A stretch of DNA of 64,000 bases from Escherichia phage vB_EcoM_PhAPEC2. Both the position numbers and the translations under genes were made by a program. Numbering within the stretch: position 1 is the stretch's first letter; each line of letters begins with the position of its first letter. Positions 26,501-61,650 of this stretch are shown piece by piece. A model generated the notes under the pieces. It had not been told where the DNA came from, ran no database searches, and was given only the letters and a program-made list of their open reading frames with translations. Where the stretch lies: the sequence record NC_024794.1. The stretch is one strand, 5' to 3'.

Positions 26501-26929
26501 TTAGATATCGAATTCGTTAAGAACTACATCAAAGATTGCTTCGAGATGTTCAGGTTTAGCTCGGTTACTCAGGATATGACGAATCCAAGTTTTAACCAGA
26601 AGTTTACGATTAACACCGTTCCAGCAAGGATGAGTACCTAAATCACGTTGACGGAAATCGTCATCTAATGCAATTTTGAAGTTGGAACCTTCCATCGTGA
26701 TTGAAACCGTGATGCCATTTTCAAATCGCATATAAACGTAATTAGGAGTCATATACTGCTCAATTTCGCATACTGAACCGTTATTATGCTTCCATAAGCA
26801 AATCGTATCGATAGAACCAGCGATACCGTTAGAAACATATTTGCGTTCGAAGTTGGTGTAGTTCATTTTATTCTCCAGATGTTTAAGTTGTTTGTTGGTA
26901 CAGGTATATAATAACATATCCTGTACCAA
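26501..26929 (-). CDS. Hypothetical protein (142 aa as given; true start may be the internal Met MNYTNFERKY)
   Basis: ORF; start ambiguity. Confidence 0.4.
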   Translation of the reverse strand: MVQDMLLYTCTNKQLKHLENKMNYTNFERKYVSNGIAGSIDTICLWKHNNGSVCEIEQYMTPNYVYMRFENGITVSITMEGSNFKIALDDDFRQRDLGTHPCWNGVNRKLLVKTWIRHILSNRAKPEHLEAIFDVVLNEFDI

Positions 26930-26940
26930 AGTAAACTGGT

Positions 26941-27309
26941 TTATGCAACTTTAATCCAATTGTCTAAATTTAAAACACCTTTGGCTTTCATTTTTTCGAT
27001 CAGGTTATCTGCTGTAATGCGTCCATTTTGATACCATGTAACATCTTCAGAGTAACCAGTTTCTTCATCAACATATGTTTCTGAACGAATTTTACCGGTA
27101 ATAATAGTTTTTAATTCGTATGTGTCACCTGTGAAAAAGTTTGCTAACACAATTTTCCAAGAGAAATCATTTGAAGGGCCTTCAGGGGTCATACAACCTA
27201 CGAACTCAAATTGCTCTTTGTATAACATCCACTGGAATTCTTTAATTTCGATAGCTTTATAACCGTCGTGGTCTTTACATTTGATGTATGAGTTCAGATT
27301 GATTTTCAT
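26941..27309 (-). CDS. Hypothetical protein (122 aa)
   Basis: ORF; early-type promoter-like sequence upstream at about 27330-27380. Confidence 0.45.
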   Translation of the reverse strand: MKINLNSYIKCKDHDGYKAIEIKEFQWMLYKEQFEFVGCMTPEGPSNDFSWKIVLANFFTGDTYELKTIITGKIRSETYVDEETGYSEDVTWYQNGRITADNLIEKMKAKGVLNLDNWIKVA

Positions 27310-27407
27310 TTTATTCTCCGGTTGTTTTATTGATTAGGTGGTACAAGTCTATAGTAACACATCCTACAGGAGAGTAAACATCTTTTTAAACTTTTTCTGC
27401 CCTAAAC

Positions 27408-33000: not shown

Positions 33001-33028
33001 TTAGATTTCCTCAATTATCCATAGGAGC

Positions 33029-33058
33029 ATTATACTCTGCTCCCGAGAGTTTGTAAAC
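33029..33058 (-). promoter_or_regulatory. Early promoter with stem-loop overlapping the -10 element (PeSL-like)
   Basis: Minus strand TTTACA-N17-TATAAT; the -10 is embedded in inverted repeat GGAGCA/TGCTCC; leader with GAGGAA SD. Confidence 0.6.
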
Positions 33059-33282
33059 TATTTTACTAAAGATTCAATATACTCATGAAGAGCTTTAGTC
33101 GCTACTGCCCACTTATTCTGATATTCATTTTTCAGATTAGCACGAGACTGAACTAACAAGCGGTCATTAGTAGGAGGCAAAGATTCTAATCGTTGAATCT
33201 GGCGCCCATAAATCATAGCCGCCATTTCAGATTCATAGATAAGCCCTTTAATATATTCATGTTGTTCTTTAGTCATTGGCAT
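33058..33282 (-). CDS. Hypothetical protein (74 aa)
   Basis: ORF downstream of the o-spanin gene. Confidence 0.4.
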   Translation of the reverse strand: MPMTKEQHEYIKGLIYESEMAAMIYGRQIQRLESLPPTNDRLLVQSRANLKNEYQNKWAVATKALHEYIESLVK

Positions 33283-42093: not shown

Positions 42094-42122
42094 ATAGTAT
42101 CATGTTTAAAGGAAAAGTAAAC
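42094..42122 (-). promoter_or_regulatory. Early sigma70-type promoter upstream of ORF 41673..42065
   Basis: Minus strand GTTTAC / 17 nt / TGaTACTAT. Confidence 0.5.
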
Positions 42123-45488: not shown

Positions 45489-48400
45489 ATGGTTGACATC
45501 AAACGTAAGTTCAGGGCCGAAGATGGTCTTGACGCAGGCGGTGATAAGATAGTTAACGTTGCGCTTGCTGACCGCACAGTTGGCACCGATGGCGTGAACG
45601 TTGACTTTTTGGTGCAAGAAAACACCGTACAGAATTATGACGATACGCGCGCGTATACAAAAGATTTTATTGTTCTTTATGATAATCGTTTTTATCAAGC
45701 TTTAAGTGATATTCCAGCTCCGGCAGGCCCTTTCTCTTTGGCTAAATGGAAGGCAACTCGTACAGATGCAGAATGGATTACAGTTCAAGGCGGAGATTTC
45801 CAATTATCAGTAGGTAACTCTATTGCGGTTGATACTTCAGCTGGCACTGATATTAATTTCACTTTGCCTCAAAATCCTTTAGATGGCGATACAGTTATTT
45901 TGTCTGATATTGGCGGTAGAGTAGGCTATGTAAAAGTTCAAATTACTGCAGCGGCTCAAAGTATTGTAGACTTTAGAGGACAACAGGTTCGTTCAGTTTT
46001 AATGACGCACCCAAAATCTAAAATGGTCTTCATTTTTAGCAACCGCCTATGGCAAATGTATGTTTCCGATTACGAACGTAATGCAGTCACAGTAACTCCT
46101 GCCACGCCATATCAAGCGCAACCTAATGATTTTATCATTCGACGTTTTACATCAGCCGCTCCTATTAATATTACATTGCCTCGTAATGCTAATAATGGCG
46201 ATATTATTAATTTAGTGGATTTAGACAAATTAAACCCATTATATCACACAATTGTCAAAACTTACGATGAAACAACTTCTATACGAGAAGCTGGTGTTCA
46301 TGTAGCAGAAGGACGTAATACTGCGGAAGCATTCTTTGTTTATGATTCTGCCAATAGTTTATGGCGTGTTTGGGAAGGTGACCAGAAATCTCGTTTACGT
46401 ATAGTTCGTAATGATACTGATTTACGCCCTAATGAAGAAGTTCTTGTTTTTGGAACTAATAATGATACAATCTCGACGGTAAATCTTACTTTGCCTACAG
46501 ATATTTTGTCTGGCGATACTGTTAAAATATCGTTGAATTATATGCGTAAAGGGCAAACTGTAAAAATTAAAGCTGCTGAAGGCGATACAATTGCTAGCAG
46601 TATTTCTTTATTACAGTTCCCAAAACGTTCGGAGTATCCACCTGATGCACAATGGGTTTCTGTTAGTGAGCTGGAATTTAATGGTGATACTTCGTATGTA
46701 CCTGTACTTGAGTTAGCTTATATAGAAGATTATTCATCTGAAACAAAATATTGGGTAGTTCAACAAAACACCGTAACCGTTGAACGAGTCGATGCATCGA
46801 GCAATACAACTCGAGCTCGTTTAGGTGTTATTGCTCTTGCTTCTCAAGCGCAAGCAAATGTTGATTTAGAAAATGCTCCTGGTAAAGAACTGGCTATTAC
46901 TCCGGAAACATTAGCAAATCGTACAGCAACTGAAACTCGTCGTGGTATTGCTCGTATTGCAACAACTGCACAAGTTAACCAGAATACCGATTTTGCATTC
47001 CAAGACGACTTGATTATTTCTCCTAAGAAATTGAACGAACGTACAGCAACTGAAACCCGTAGAGGTGTTGCTGAAGTTGCAACTCAGGCTGAAACTAATG
47101 CTGGAACAGATGACACCACTATTATTACTCCTAAGAAATTGGATGCCCGTCAAGGTTCTGAAGTTTTATCTGGTATTGTAAAATACACATCTACGACTGG
47201 TACTACAGCTGCTACTATTCGTGGTAATGCTGGGACTAATGTTTATAACAAAGCCGTAGATAATTTAACTATTTCTCCAAAGGCCCTTGACCAATATAAA
47301 GCTACCCCTACTCAGCAGGGTGCAGTAATTCTTGCTATTGAAAGTGAAGTTATCGCCGGCGAATCACAAGCCGGTTGGGCTAATGCTGTAGTGACCCCTG
47401 AAACTCTGCATAAGAAAACTTCTACTGATGGACGTATTGGTTTAATTGAAATTGCTACGCAAGCAGAAACTAATGATGGGACCGATTATACACGTGCAGT
47501 AACGCCTAAGACATTAAATGATAGGAGAGCGACGGAAGGATTATCCGGCATAGCCGAAATTGCTACGCAAGTTGAATTTGATACTGGAACTGATGATACT
47601 CGTATCTCGACTCCACTGAAAATTAAAACTCATTTTGATTCTTCTGACCGTACCAGTGTTAATTCTGATTCCGGACTTATTGAAGAAGGAACCTTGTGGA
47701 ACCATTATACTCTTGATATTTCTAAAGCAAATGAAACACAACGTGGTACACTTCGCGTAGCGACCCAGGCAGAATCTAATGCAGGAACTTTAGATGATGT
47801 TCTTATTACTCCTAAAAAGCTTTTAGGGACTAAGTCCACTGAAACGTCTGAAGGCGTAATTAAGGTTGCTACTCAGGCTGAAACTGTAACAGGAACTTCT
47901 GCTAATACTGCTGTATCACCTAAGAATTTAAAATGGATTGTTCAATCAGAACCATCATGGACTGCTACTACGGCAATTCGTGGATTCGTTAAAACTTCAT
48001 CTGGTTCTATTACATTTGTTGGTAATGATACAGTTGGTTCAACACAATCTTTAGAATCATATGAGAAAAATAGCTATGCGGTATCACCATATGAATTAAA
48101 CCGTGTACTTGCTAACTACTTACCGTTGAAAGCTAAAGCAGCTGATAGTAATTTGTTAGATGGTCTAGATTCTCTTCAGTTCATCCGTAGAGACATCGAC
48201 CAGACGGTTAATGGTTCTTTAAGTCTTACTAAACAGACCAACCTGAGTGCTCCTTTAGTATCTACAAGCACTGCTTCTTTTGGTTCCGAAGCATCTGTTA
48301 CTCGTAGATTAACTCTTAATGACTCTAGCGGTTCCGAAATAGTTTTCACTAAAGGAACCCAATCTCTTAGTAATAAAGAGAATTTCGTTGTTAGAGCATG

Positions 48401-58118: not shown

Positions 58119-58751
58119 TCACAGTACGTTAGTTACAAGGGTAATGATTTCTTTGGACACATTAGGGAAGTCAATGTAAGTATATTTACCACCGATCTTA
58201 ATCTTAACATCATTTTCAAGAGAAGTAAACAGCTTTGATTCAGTTTCTGACATGTTGTATGCAAAGATTCTAAGAGCGCCGTCTCGACGAATTTCGATCT
58301 GACGAATACCTAGAACTCGTTTTGCAAATCGAACTTCCAAGTTACTACGGTTTTCACCAATTTCTTTAACTTCAACTTTATCTTTAATATTTTCAAAAAC
58401 AAAGTTTGCTAGTTCATGCATTTCAGGAGTAACTCCACGTGCTTTTCTAGTGTTACGTTTCTGAAGAAGTTCTGGAGCATTTTCTTGGGCAAAGAGGTCT
58501 GCAGCTTTTTGGATAATATCCATTGCTTCACCAGTTGCCACAAGTCCATCACCAGATTTTTCGACTAAACCTTTCTTAATCAATACACCAATGTTAGAGT
58601 TAACAACCGATGCATTGTATTCCGCTTCTAGAGCTTCACGGACATTGGCAGCAGTGGTGAAGTTGTTCTTAATGATATAAACCATTATTGCAGCAGTTTT
58701 TTCATTCAGAGCGTTTTCAGAAGCTTTGATGATGTAAGTAACTTTAGACAT
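58119..58751 (-). CDS. motA: Middle transcription activator MotA
   Basis: 210 aa (T4 MotA 211 aa); sequence matches as recalled; early promoter upstream. Confidence 0.85.
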   Translation of the reverse strand: MSKVTYIIKASENALNEKTAAIMVYIIKNNFTTAANVREALEAEYNASVVNSNIGVLIKKGLVEKSGDGLVATGEAMDIIQKAADLFAQENAPELLQKRNTRKARGVTPEMHELANFVFENIKDKVEVKEIGENRSNLEVRFAKRVLGIRQIEIRRDGALRIFAYNMSETESKLFTSLENDVKIKIGGKYTYIDFPNVSKEIITLVTNVL

Positions 58752-58808
58752 TTTATTTCTCCAAATTAGTATTTGTTTTGATAGGTCTATAATATCATGT
58801 TTGAAGCA
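58744..58808 (-). repeat. Promoter/leader cassette copy A (upstream of and including the motA start codon)
   Basis: Shares 21-nt and 33-nt identical blocks with 59065-59129 (TTAGACATTTTATTTCTCCAA ... TTTTGATAGGTCTATAATATCATGTTTGAAGCA). Confidence 0.7.
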
Positions 58809-58817
58809 AAAGTAAAC
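58789..58817 (-). promoter_or_regulatory. Early promoter upstream of motA
   Basis: Minus strand GTTTAC-N17-TATTAT; part of a duplicated cassette. Confidence 0.55.
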
Positions 58818-58855
58818 TTTATTTTGGGCTCTTTTTCCAAAAGCCCTGGTAAAAT

Positions 58856-59071
58856 TTACAAACTCATTTCTTTAATAAGGTCAATAAGTTTTGCCTTTTT
58901 AGAACGAAGCTTTTCTAAATGATGACCATTTGAACCGCGAACCACTAAAGAATTGATTTCAACTTCTAAGAAATTTAATTCTTCGACAAGTGCTTTACGG
59001 GGAGCATTCATACCAGGTTTAACTTTACCGAAACGAGTAGTTGTGTTTTGGGTTAATTTCATTTTAGACAT
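58856..59071 (-). CDS. Hypothetical basic protein (71 aa)
   Basis: ORF sharing a duplicated promoter/leader/start (MSK...) cassette with motA. Confidence 0.5.
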   Translation of the reverse strand: MSKMKLTQNTTTRFGKVKPGMNAPRKALVEELNFLEVEINSLVVRGSNGHHLEKLRSKKAKLIDLIKEMSL

Positions 59072-59129
59072 TTTATTTCTCCAATTTGGTTGTTTTGTTT
59101 TGATAGGTCTATAATATCATGTTTGAAGC
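59065..59129 (-). repeat. Promoter/leader cassette copy B (upstream of and including start of ORF 58856..59071)
   Basis: Direct repeat of cassette A about 320 bp away; both genes begin ATG TCT AAA. Confidence 0.7.
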
Positions 59130-59139
59130 ACGTGTAAAC
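59111..59139 (-). promoter_or_regulatory. Early promoter upstream of ORF 58856..59071
   Basis: Minus strand GTTTAC-N17-TATTAT; near-identical to the motA promoter. Confidence 0.55.
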
Positions 59140-59164
59140 TGTTTTGTGAGAAAAATGCACAAAA

Positions 59165-59180
59165 GGGAGCTTCGGCTCCC
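59165..59180. other. Tetraloop hairpin between gene 52 and upstream ORF; loop is UUCG on plus strand
   Basis: GGGAGC-TTCG-GCTCCC; orientation is the exception to the pattern of UUCG on the transcribed strand. Confidence 0.4.
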
Positions 59181-59256
59181 TAATCATGTTTATCCAACCA
59201 ATACAGCCAAATCACTAGTGCAGCTATTGCACCGAGAAATCCTAAGGCTAGGGCAC

Positions 59257-60582
59257 TCAAAGCGCCTCCAAGTCTTTAGTGTACTCTGTCACAACATCAG
59301 TAGACTTCCAATACTCATTTTCTTCTTTCTTAGCTTTAGCTTCTTCTGCTAGTTTACGTGCTTCATCGGAAGTGATATGGAAGATGTTAAGACCTACCAG
59401 TTTATCGACATGTTCTTTATACATTTTTATTTGTGCTAGCTCTTCAGTCAAAGCTTTACGAGTCTTGCCCTGAATCACAATTTCGCCACTGATAACTTTT
59501 TTGATGAAGTGTGCCTTAGCAAAAGCAAGTTTAAATGCTTTTTCAGATTCAAGGATTTTGTTGTCAATACGTTTCTGAACGTAAGTCTTACGGACTTCAA
59601 CAAAATCTTTGATTAAGTCCACTACGTTGTCGTAGACCGCTAATTTACCCTTTTCATTAATCACTGTGATGTTTTGTGAACGACGTTCGATGAGACTAAA
59701 ATCTTTCATGATTTTTTCATGACGTAGCTCTTCATCATCAGGAAGCGAGTACTCTTTACGGAACTTCACCTTAAACCCAAAGCCATGTTCACCGCAATCA
59801 TCTTCCCATGAGATTAGACCTTTGTCTTCCAACGGGTCGAGAACCTTACTCACATACGTTTCACGGTCGAATTTATATGGGATTTCAGTTATCTGCATTT
59901 GAGTGCGAGATGTGAACTTATATGTTCCGTGAATCTCATAACGCCCATCAACTTCATGTACTTCACCACGGAATTCTGGGAATTCAACTTTTGGCTTAGT
60001 GACATTTTTACCTTGAAGAGCTTGTAATACAGCCTTTTTAACTGATTTAAAACTATGAGGCAGAATATTTGTTGCGTAACCGGTTGCAATACCAGAGACA
60101 CCATTCAAAAGAACTGTCGGAATAATAGGAAGATAGAATTTTGGTGGAATGTGTTCTTTATCTTCATGAGCTGGAGCATATTCAGTATCTTTATATACGT
60201 TATAGAAATTTTTACTTACACGAGCAAAAATATAACGAGATGCTGCAGCCTTTTGGACTGTTCTAGAGCCAAAGTTACCTTGACCATCTAACAGTGGATA
60301 GTTGTTGTTCCATGTGTTAGCCATCAATGCACCTGCATCTTGTGCAGAGGATTCACCATGGTGATAACCTAAATCTGCAACACCTCCTGCAATTGACGCA
60401 AGTTTATGAAATTTTTCTTTATTACCACGAGCCAAATCTAACGCACGATGAACCACAAAACGTTGAACCGGCTTAAATCCATCAATCATGTTTGGGATTG
60501 CACGGTTTTCAACGGTGTACATCGCATATGCTAAGGCTTCGTTATCAATAATACTTTTTAGATTACGAGAATTCAATTGCAT
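59257..60582 (-). CDS. 52: DNA topoisomerase II medium subunit gp52
   Basis: 441 aa (T4 gp52 442 aa); GyrA-like N-terminal region; matches as recalled. Confidence 0.9.
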   Translation of the reverse strand: MQLNSRNLKSIIDNEALAYAMYTVENRAIPNMIDGFKPVQRFVVHRALDLARGNKEKFHKLASIAGGVADLGYHHGESSAQDAGALMANTWNNNYPLLDGQGNFGSRTVQKAAASRYIFARVSKNFYNVYKDTEYAPAHEDKEHIPPKFYLPIIPTVLLNGVSGIATGYATNILPHSFKSVKKAVLQALQGKNVTKPKVEFPEFRGEVHEVDGRYEIHGTYKFTSRTQMQITEIPYKFDRETYVSKVLDPLEDKGLISWEDDCGEHGFGFKVKFRKEYSLPDDEELRHEKIMKDFSLIERRSQNITVINEKGKLAVYDNVVDLIKDFVEVRKTYVQKRIDNKILESEKAFKLAFAKAHFIKKVISGEIVIQGKTRKALTEELAQIKMYKEHVDKLVGLNIFHITSDEARKLAEEAKAKKEENEYWKSTDVVTEYTKDLEAL

Positions 60583-60926: not shown

Positions 60927-61373
60927 TTAGTAACTCTGCAGAATGAATTTGAAATTATCTGCCAGAAGACGGTTCATTTCAGTGAGTGTTTGATATTCTG
61001 ATGTATGGTTGCGAGTGAATGCCAGAGCCAATTGTCCTTTACCGTAACCAGTAGTCAGTGGTTTCATGTTCTTAGCTGCAACAAAGATTACATCATATTC
61101 AATATTGTTAGTGCCCATAGTACGAGCCAGTTGCGAACGACCTTGACGAATGTGAGAAAGAATTGCATCTAACCCTTGTTTAGAACGTTGACGTCCTACA
61201 AAGAATCGTGCTGCTACTTGTCGCCAATCAGATGAACCTTTAACAAAGAAGTAAAAACCTTCACGAGAACGAAACTCTTTAGAAACTTCGGAACCGTATT
61301 CGCCATTACGAACTACTGCAACAACTTCACCGCCAACTGCCAGAAGGTCTTTACGAGTTAAATATTTAGACAT
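60927..61373 (-). CDS. ndd: Nucleoid disruption protein Ndd
   Basis: 148 aa; C-terminal region [34 protein letters not shown] matches T4 Ndd as recalled. Confidence 0.85.
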
Positions 61374-61417
61374 GCTAATTTCCTCAATTGATTAATGTTT
61401 TTGTAATCCATGAGAGC

Positions 61418-61446
61418 ATTATACTCTGCTCTCAAGAGTTTGTACA
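61418..61446 (-). promoter_or_regulatory. Early promoter upstream of ndd, with stem-loop overlapping -10 (PeSL-like)
   Basis: Minus strand TGTACA / 17 nt / TATAAT; -10 embedded in inverted repeat GAGAGCA/TGCTCTC; about 40 bp near-identical to the element at 33020-33060. Confidence 0.6.
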
Positions 61447-61449
61447 ATT

Positions 61450-61650
61450 TTATTCGGCTATATCAGAACGTTCAAAAAGCTCTTCAACGGTTAAACATTC
61501 GGTGTCATCCTCAATAAAGAATCGGGTCCAACACGTTGGGGCGATGCAGTTATGAGTTTGTCCGGCTATAGAAGCTACACGAATAAGCTGCTGGCCATTA
61601 TTCAGGACAAATTTTTCACCAATTTCAACATCTTTAAAAAGCTTAGCCAT
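61450..61650 (-). CDS. Hypothetical protein (66 aa)
   Basis: ORF with early-type promoter upstream. Confidence 0.45.
   Translation of the reverse strand: MAKLFKDVEIGEKFVLNNGQQLIRVASIAGQTHNCIAPTCWTRFFIEDDTECLTVEELFERSDIAE

Follow-up and report, generated by a model that had tools for sequence, protein, structure and literature searches.

A duplicated early-promoter cassette around a 71-residue open reading frame upstream of motA in Escherichia phage vB_EcoM_PhAPEC2, and its probable part in gene loss and exchange

Why do two neighbouring phage genes begin with the same promoter, the same leader and the same three codons? The question is raised by a stretch of 64,000 nucleotides (nt) from Escherichia phage vB_EcoM_PhAPEC2 (sequence record NC_024794.1; the whole stretch is called the window here), in which motA and an open reading frame (ORF) of 71 amino acids (aa) upstream of it share two identical blocks. 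An initial annotation of the window had described them as a duplicated mobile regulatory cassette. According to the present analysis, the repeats are very probably paralogous early cassettes of the promoter-early stem-loop (PeSL) type, and recombination between them deletes, adds and swaps genes. The locus region is 95–98% identical to Mosigvirus phages, e.g. vB_EcoM-ZQ3 and ATK47, and gene 52 shows only ~79% identity to that of T4; the phage of the window is an RB69-like Mosigvirus (T4-type). The gp52 gene, the 71-aa ORF and motA are all on the minus strand. The genes and the exact blocks are as follows (SD, Shine-Dalgarno sequence).

58119..58751, minus strand: motA, activator of middle transcription (ORF list; annotation of relatives)
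58856..59071, minus strand: 71-aa ORF (ORF71), phrog_6200 (ORF list; comparative evidence)
59257..60582, minus strand: gp52, DNA topoisomerase II medium subunit, the upstream conserved gene (ORF list; annotation of near-identical relatives)
58743-58764 (copy A) and 59063-59084 (copy B), minus strand: exact 22-nt SD/start block TTGGAGAAATAAAATGTCTAAA (repeat finder, alignment)
58772-58808 (copy A) and 59094-59130 (copy B), minus strand: exact 37-nt block TGCTTCAAACATGATATTATAGACCTATCAAAACAAA (repeat finder, alignment)

The repeat finder and the pairwise alignment give direct-repeat periods of 320 and 322 bp, in agreement with the distance of about 320 bp that had been claimed, and both identical blocks are present and slightly longer (22 and 37 nt) than first quoted. 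The common start ATG TCT AAA (Met-Ser-Lys) of motA and the 71-aa ORF, also noticed before, lies inside the exact 22-nt block. The alignment from the -35 hexamer through codon 3 comprises 77 positions, of which 69 are identical; 6 mismatches and a 2-nt indel, the latter in the leader, make up the rest. Upstream of -35 (hairpin and A-rich region), the copies are non-homologous, with 36% identity.

Is this identity limited to a generic promoter consensus? When the 22-nt and 37-nt patterns were searched with up to 3 mismatches, just these two sites were found in the 64 kb, and 100 shuffles gave 0 expected. In addition, 16 early-promoter-like minus-strand sites were compared in all pairs. The pair of cassettes A and B is the top outlier, with 83% identity over 85 nt and the 37-nt exact run; the remaining 119 pairs show a mean identity of 60% (sd 4%) and a maximum of 74%. 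The pair is also the best promoter-type direct repeat in a scan of the whole window. Non-consensus positions match as well, namely the 17-nt spacer except 3 nt, and the first ~20 nt of the transcript. The shuffles and the all-pair comparison rule out the generic-consensus explanation. Over the 42-nt core, the motA copy shares 88% identity with the promoter at 42122. Therefore, part of the core identity of A and B is a family consensus.

What does each copy contain? On the gene strand, each reads in order GTTTAC, a 17-nt spacer ending TGA, TATTAT, AGACCTATCAAAACAAA, a short variable leader, TTGGAGAAATAAA and ATG TCT AAA. The elements are located as follows.

59150..59181, minus strand: hairpin B and U-rich tract (stem GGGAGC/GCUCCC, loop CGAA, 59164-59181; fold)
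59063..59149, minus strand: cassette B, with A-rich region, promoter, leader, SD and start of the 71-aa ORF
59134-59139 and 59111-59116, minus strand: -35 GTTTAC and -10 TATTAT of cassette B, with a 17-nt spacer containing TGn
~59104, 59079-59082 and 59063-59071, minus strand: predicted transcription start, SD GGAG and ATG TCT AAA of cassette B
58826..58846, minus strand: hairpin A, GGGCUUUU-GGAAA-AAGAGCCC, 8 bp (fold; alignment)
58743..58825, minus strand: cassette A, with A-rich region, promoter, leader, SD and start of motA
58812-58817 and 58789-58794, minus strand: -35 GTTTAC and -10 TATTAT of cassette A, with a 17-nt spacer containing TGn
~58782, 58759-58762 and 58743-58751, minus strand: predicted transcription start, SD GGAG and ATG TCT AAA of cassette A

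Both copies have the features of T4-type early promoters (GTTTAC, 17-nt spacer, TGn, a TAnnnT -10 and an A-rich upstream (UP) region), and the single-cassette counterpart of RB69 has been predicted as early promoter Pe:162713 (Nolan et al.). The -10 element of the initial annotation is present, but it reads TATTAT on the gene strand; TATAAT, seen on the plus strand, is only a reverse-complement reading. Likewise, the promoter, leader and start codon stand as parts of the cassette, and the upstream hairpin, absent from that annotation, is to be added to each copy.

Hairpin B folds with -14.6 kcal/mol (z -2.6). It is an annotated terminator in ATK47 and NBG1 and corresponds to the TransTerm prediction 'motA<--52' in RB69; in the window, the terminator prediction at hairpin B fell on the plus strand. 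We regard it as the predicted intrinsic terminator of the gp52 transcription unit and as the 5' part of cassette B. Hairpin A, the 5' part of cassette A, folds with -12.2 kcal/mol (z -2.1), is located 10 nt downstream of the stop codon TAA (58856-58858) of the 71-aa ORF, and is kept in the alignment across Mosigvirus and its sister genus Dhakavirus. The leaders are ~31-33 nt long, as judged from the -10 position, and are unstructured (-1.7 and -2.6 kcal/mol, z ~0). Both cassettes end with GGAG N8 ATG, and an A-rich tract follows GGAG. The strong-site consensus of the endoribonuclease RegB is GG*AGRAYARAA, T4 RegB cleaves within the motA SD, and regB has been reported for RB69; the gene lies outside the window. 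GGAGAAAUAAAA, found in both leaders, matches the strong site at 5/7 positions, or completely with a 1-nt shift. The GGAG SD of both leaders is a likely RegB site.

Do the two cassettes recombine in nature? Relatives among GenBank phages were sampled by megablast with a 3-kb query, and the gp52-motA intervals were then aligned. Some Mosigvirus records match the query in two pieces, with ~335 bp missing. In the case of S143_2 and O157 typing phage 3 (O157tp3), exactly 320 bp are missing, which correspond to the 71-aa ORF and one cassette; their single cassette follows copy B as far as the end of the leader, and the junction with motA comes after ATGTCTAAA. Between gp52 and motA, Mosigvirus genomes with the ORF have 504-507 bp and those without it 183-190 bp, and the chimera pEK20 has 209 bp. 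About half of the ~153 Mosigvirus records (~76) carry the ORF; the others (~77), including RB69 itself, are without exactly 320 bp at the repeat boundaries and keep one chimeric cassette. This comparison had been proposed in the initial annotation, and its outcome agrees with the suggestion made there that the repeats could mediate loss of the intervening ORF.

Two junction types, with two crossover positions, are found among the natural deletions. Type 1, the commoner one, has the B upstream region, B spacer and B leader fused to motA (S143_2, O157tp3, FL31, VIPECOMC06, FL18, JQD51, p000v and 2 IMG/VR contigs). Type 2 has the B upstream region and B spacer with the A leader (RB69, PTK and pEK20). 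Thus, the crossover of type 2 lies inside the 37-nt block. A crossover in the 22-nt block would explain the type 1 junction, but so would one anywhere in a longer identity, given an ancestor like NHEP11, in which the identity is continuous over ~71 nt. A scan of IMG/VR with MotA gave 2 loci, both of them ORF-less and of type 1. All junctions lie inside shared sequence with no extra or missing bases, and the indel is exactly one repeat period.

Equal products, with no circular by-product, would be expected from replication slippage (copy-choice) instead of UvsX-type strand exchange. Short exact repeats of 22-37 nt at a distance of 320 bp are a classic slippage substrate, and a 5-nt AAAAC expansion observed in the p000v leader is a slippage signature. 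However, mini-circles with crossovers between the SD and -10 have been physically detected for the analogous cassettes of RB49 and phi1 (PeSL literature), and the two-way patchwork in MRostami, NHEP11 and Bp7 and the intergeneric joint of pEK20, both described below, resemble strand exchange. We consider slippage an unlikely source of the deletions, and recombination between the cassettes is preferred.

The loop of hairpin B (59171-59174) occurs in two opposite orientations in isolates that are nearly identical elsewhere. Its gene-strand sequence is CGAA in the phage of the window, S143_2, NBG1 and RB69; ZQ3, ATK47, O157tp3 and most others, as well as Dhakavirus, have UUCG, the stable cUUCGg tetraloop. 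All four combinations of loop and ORF state occur. Either one of the two changes, the flip or the deletion, has thus happened more than once, or the sites have been parted by recombination.

Which other changes occur at the same cassettes? Dhakavirus genomes carry the 71-aa ORF, a different ORF, or both, each behind such cassettes. IME08 has three cassettes and an unrelated 73-aa ORF (ORF-X) between the 71-aa ORF and motA; this ORF-X sits behind an exact copy of the B-type leader. AnYang has ORF-X alone between gp52 and motA. ORF-X represents a 73-aa ORFan family (MKTLNINSFFYNANTDH...) and was located at ~1820-2045 (IME08), 1201-1422 (AnYang) and 859-1122 (ZQ3) of the retrieved loci. A homologue with 63-66% identity is found in ~29 Mosigvirus genomes, 80-90 kb from the gp52-motA pocket, where it lies (e.g. 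in ZQ3) between another near-identical pair of early promoters with a hairpin overlapping -10. Distant relatives (~39% identical) are found in T4-like phages of Aeromonas. In pEK20 (MZ868638, classed as Mosigvirus), the 3' end of gp52, a mini-ORF behind it and the hairpin are of Dhakavirus type, and the switch to Mosigvirus type is found exactly at the terminator T-tract of cassette B, between CCTTTTT and GTGCATTTTTC (~560-730 of the retrieved locus).

The pocket between gp52 and motA is thus found in four natural states (none, the 71-aa ORF, ORF-X, or both), and judged from the compared genomes, the cassettes are the joints of this variation. With respect to the term 'mobile regulatory cassette', the gene shuffling at cassettes and the PeSL anatomy agree with it, but 'mobile' goes beyond evidence that consists of recombination between resident cassettes.

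Was the 71-aa ORF lost from some genomes or inserted into others? The ORF is found only in Mosigvirus and Dhakavirus, always between gp52 and motA. At the nucleotide level, the two genera are 71% identical in the ORF, 72% in gp52 and 71% in motA; within Mosigvirus, the ORF is 98% identical and as uniform as its flanks. Its dN/dS is ~0.2. These values indicate a real gene that is co-inherited with its flanks, and thus the ORF-less genomes are deletion derivatives. According to these comparisons, the 71-aa ORF is ancestral, and the two-cassette arrangement predates the split of Mosigvirus and Dhakavirus.

In the opposite direction, the ORF-less state, as in RB69, would be ancestral; the 71-aa ORF with a cassette would have been inserted, e.g. 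from a PeSL mini-circle or from a co-infecting Dhakavirus-like phage, and the repeats would be the scar of the insertion. Recombination of a resident cassette with a one-cassette circle yields the observed structure, and the junctions alone give no direction. Insertion does occur at such cassettes, as seen in IME08, which gained ORF-X behind a copy of the B leader, and pEK20 documents intergeneric exchange at this very locus. Against an insertion stand the equal divergence of the ORF and its flanks between the genera, its uniformity within Mosigvirus, and its presence at one locus together with hairpin A in both genera. Searches of 50,697 phage records and 5.8 billion proteins gave no other copy of the ORF, and separate deletions account more readily for two junction classes. 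Insertion is accordingly given a low probability, and loss of an ancestral ORF is the preferred direction.

The 71-aa ORF is dispensable, because it has been lost in half of the isolates. It has no Pfam match, matches only phrog_6200 (function unknown) and forms just 8 protein clusters. Its AlphaFold model (pLDDT 76) consists of a disordered basic N-terminus and a generic two-helix hairpin, and the Foldseek search against PDB gave no informative structural match (best E-value 0.7). In ECCR664, the 3' end of the ORF is frameshifted.

Do the cassettes also exchange sequence without loss of the ORF? The identities of the cassette parts were compared between paralogs (A-B) within each genus and between orthologs of the two genera.

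Upstream hairpin and UP region: A-B 36% in Mosigvirus and 37% in Dhakavirus; orthologs 66% (A-A) and 48% (B-B)
Core (-35 to TATC): A-B 92% in Mosigvirus and 97% in Dhakavirus; orthologs 92% (A-A) and 87% (B-B)
Leader: A-B 73% in Mosigvirus and 51% in Dhakavirus; orthologs 45% (A-A) and 64% (B-B)
SD, ATG and codons 2-3: A-B 100% in Mosigvirus and 66% in Dhakavirus; orthologs 86% (A-A) and 70% (B-B)

Two genus-specific core substitutions, GCTTC/GCTTT and TATTAT/TACTAT, are common to both paralogs. The 71-aa ORF starts with MNK in Dhakavirus, and with MSK, like motA, in Mosigvirus; T4 motA natively has ATGTCTAAA. Individual genomes show a patchwork. NHEP11 has TAGTAT and a B-type leader in both copies, and MRostami has an A-type spacer in copy B. 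The motA leader of Bp7, in which motA is annotated as two coding sequences (CDS), carries the B-type GGAGATACAAAATG. The copies of JS98 are TTC/TTC, and those of VR5 are TTA/TTA. Most likely, as far as these alignments tell, gene conversion homogenised the leader and the SD-ATG-codons 2-3 segment in Mosigvirus, with motA as the donor.

Could the similarity of the cassettes be purely functional? Selection would then keep the promoter, SD and RegB site alike, and the indels would be unrelated illegitimate events. The T4-type early promoter consensus is long, as the core of the 42122 promoter illustrates; the core identity of orthologs equals that of paralogs; and MSK starts are over-represented. 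On the other hand, unrelated events do not account for an indel of exactly one repeat period with every junction inside shared sequence, and selection on consensus elements does not account for identity at non-consensus positions or for private variants present in both copies of a single genome, e.g. TAGTAT in NHEP11. We therefore regard a purely functional origin as highly improbable, and common descent of the cassettes with recombination between them is retained.

Several points weigh against this account. The similarity of A and B within their own genome was not significant in a permutation test within the two genera (p=0.24 and 0.14), and thus ongoing conversion rests on the individual cases and on the comparison between genera. 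The paralog core identity (92%) is no higher than that of the orthologs (92%/87%), so that the core might be kept by selection without any conversion; as ndd, too, opens with ATGTCTAAA, selection may also favour the start ATG TCT AAA. An NHEP11-like ancestor would widen the zone for the type 1 crossover beyond the 22-nt block, and one deletion followed by recombination between phages could account for both junction classes. In the flank trees, genomes with and without the ORF are interleaved; the trees are too shallow, and the clade too recombinant, to count independent deletions. No U-tract is present 3' of hairpin A, which may thus not terminate transcription, and GGAGAAAUAAAA fits the RegB strong-site consensus only with the 1-nt shift. 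Promoter, terminator and RegB activity are predictions for this phage, and likewise we infer the recombination pathway and the direction of conversion.

How would the pair work? The hairpin of each cassette would insulate its gene from upstream transcription, and each cassette would fire a strong T4-type early promoter (A-rich UP, GTTTAC, TGn, TATTAT) and supply an unstructured A-rich leader with the GGAG SD, the likely RegB site. With a common promoter and a common GGAG leader, the 71-aa ORF and motA would therefore receive an equal immediate-early burst and an equal post-transcriptional shut-off. As the direct repeats contain exact runs of 37 and 22 nt, the recombination and replication machinery of the phage can cross over between them. 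A crossover would excise one 320-bp unit (the 71-aa ORF and one cassette), and the chimeric cassette would then drive motA. Conversion from the motA cassette would have changed the N-terminus of the 71-aa ORF from MNK to MSK in Mosigvirus. A combined model, in which the regulatory cassette reaches functionally into the coding sequence, conversion from the motA donor rewrites N-termini and the same repeats form an excision-ready module, whose circles of 71-aa ORF and cassette reinsert at related cassettes, is possible but doubtful.

Is the mechanism a new one? PeSL cassettes were described in the coliphages RB49 and phi1 (Arbiol et al., 2010, PMC2839356) and extended to PST/T4 and nt-1/KVP40 (Comeau et al., 2014, PMC4122927). 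As in PeSLs, an upstream stop codon, an AT-rich region, a hairpin, -35/-10, the SD and the start codon form one unit, and the hairpin beside the promoter, upstream of -35, is at one of the five PeSL positions. A small ORFan is flanked, and relatives differ by its exact loss, with a single chimeric cassette left. The crossover zones between -10 and SD/ATG are as reported for PeSLs. PeSLs form a repeated family that mostly precedes ORFans in plastic regions; here, too, the minus strand of the window carries at least 16 related promoter cassettes.

Several features differ from the RB49 case. The promoter is of the T4 early type (GTTTAC) here and of the E. coli consensus type in RB49. The hairpins of the pair are upstream of -35 and unlike each other, whereas in many other cassettes of this phage the hairpin overlaps -10. 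Instead of a large hyperplastic region, the variable site is a one-gene pocket flanked by gp52 and motA, both of them core genes, and the identity of A and B runs three codons into the ORFs. Neither the gp52-motA locus nor Mosigvirus is treated in the two PeSL papers (PMC2839356, PMC4122927), and no prior description of the cassette pair was found in the searchable literature.

'PeSL-like analogs' at the internal-protein (IP) loci of T-even phages (Repoila et al., 1994), as far as they are discussed in PMC2839356, also have repeated T4-type early promoters and weaker AT-rich hairpins that bracket variable small genes; according to that description, the locus and the cargo are different. T4 itself has a terminator hairpin, a GTTTAC promoter, a leader, the GGAG SD and ATG TCT AAA upstream of motA. 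Its cassette is single, however, the spacer and leader sequences differ, and T4 motA.1, 49 aa long and overlapping the stop codon of gp52, shows no relation to the 71-aa ORF. By analogy, integron cassettes and lambdoid 'morons' are also small self-expressed accessory genes that are gained and lost as units at defined sites, but no integrase or attC takes part here, and the exchange occurs via homology of the regulatory cassettes.

The gp52-motA pair is therefore a further example of a PeSL-type mechanism already described in T4-type phages, and no new mechanism is involved. For the modular shuffling proposed in the PeSL model, the pocket is an unusually clear series of natural variants. As four states, two crossover classes and an intergeneric joint are readable from public genomes, it is well suited to measurements of how cassettes mediate deletion, insertion and circle formation. 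The type phage RB69 owes its state at this locus to a deletion. The locus also suggests that homogenisation between regulatory cassettes can overrun the adjacent coding sequence.

Does MotA act on these promoters? Both spacers contain TGCTTCA (58802-58808 and 59124-59130, minus strand; TGCTTTA in Dhakavirus), a fit to the consensus TGCTTtA of the MotA box. It is located 7 nt from -10, against the expected 11-13 nt, and such heptamers occur 62 times in the window, with 21 expected. Thus, TGCTTCA in the spacer may be due to chance. A MotA-dependent middle promoter was rejected for the wrong spacing and the common heptamer; a feedback of MotA on its own early promoter through the conserved, mis-spaced TGCTTYA of both spacers is a speculation.

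A further small reading frame is found between gp52 and hairpin B.

59180..59260, minus strand: 26-codon hydrophobic mini-ORF MSALALGFLGAIAALVIWLYWLDKHD (translation; alignment of relatives)

It has no annotation in the window. The TTG start, 4 nt downstream of GGAGG, overlaps the gp52 stop codon TGA, and the stop codon TAG adjoins hairpin B. In the alignment, the changes across relatives are synonymous or conservative. Dhakavirus C6 and pEK20 have an annotated counterpart of 34 aa, and T4 motA.1 occupies the same position, with the same overlap of the gp52 stop.

The plus-strand ORFs 58797..58922 and 59119..59352 were considered as genes and rejected as by-products of the repeat, with no coding evidence. 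Both begin with MFEA(K/R)VN, because their starts fall inside the repeated promoter block. Questionable annotations around these ORFs are found in some relatives (NICP_013; small CDS in FL31 and FL18). ATGTCTAAA occurs at 3 sites in the window, each a minus-strand gene start, and opens 3 of 68 SD-preceded ORFs; the third site is the ndd homologue (60927..61373, minus strand), which starts with ATG TCT AAA behind a different SD.

Other repeat pairs are also present in the window. A second adjacent cassette pair is located at 26862-26936 and 27305-27379 (minus strand; 75 nt, 77% identical, 443 bp apart). Both copies end with GGAGAATAAAATG, a perfect match to the RegB strong site, and the pair flanks a 122-aa ORF (26941..27309). 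The length of this region varies among Mosigvirus, and FL18 and SSE1 carry ~590 bp more. The promoter-type repeats 33017-33062 and 61406-61451 are 28 kb apart and 85% identical over 46 nt, with a hairpin overlapping -10. Finally, 46893-47603 contains several imperfect direct repeats (69-77% identical) with spacings of 108-120 bp and 375 bp, which may be coding.

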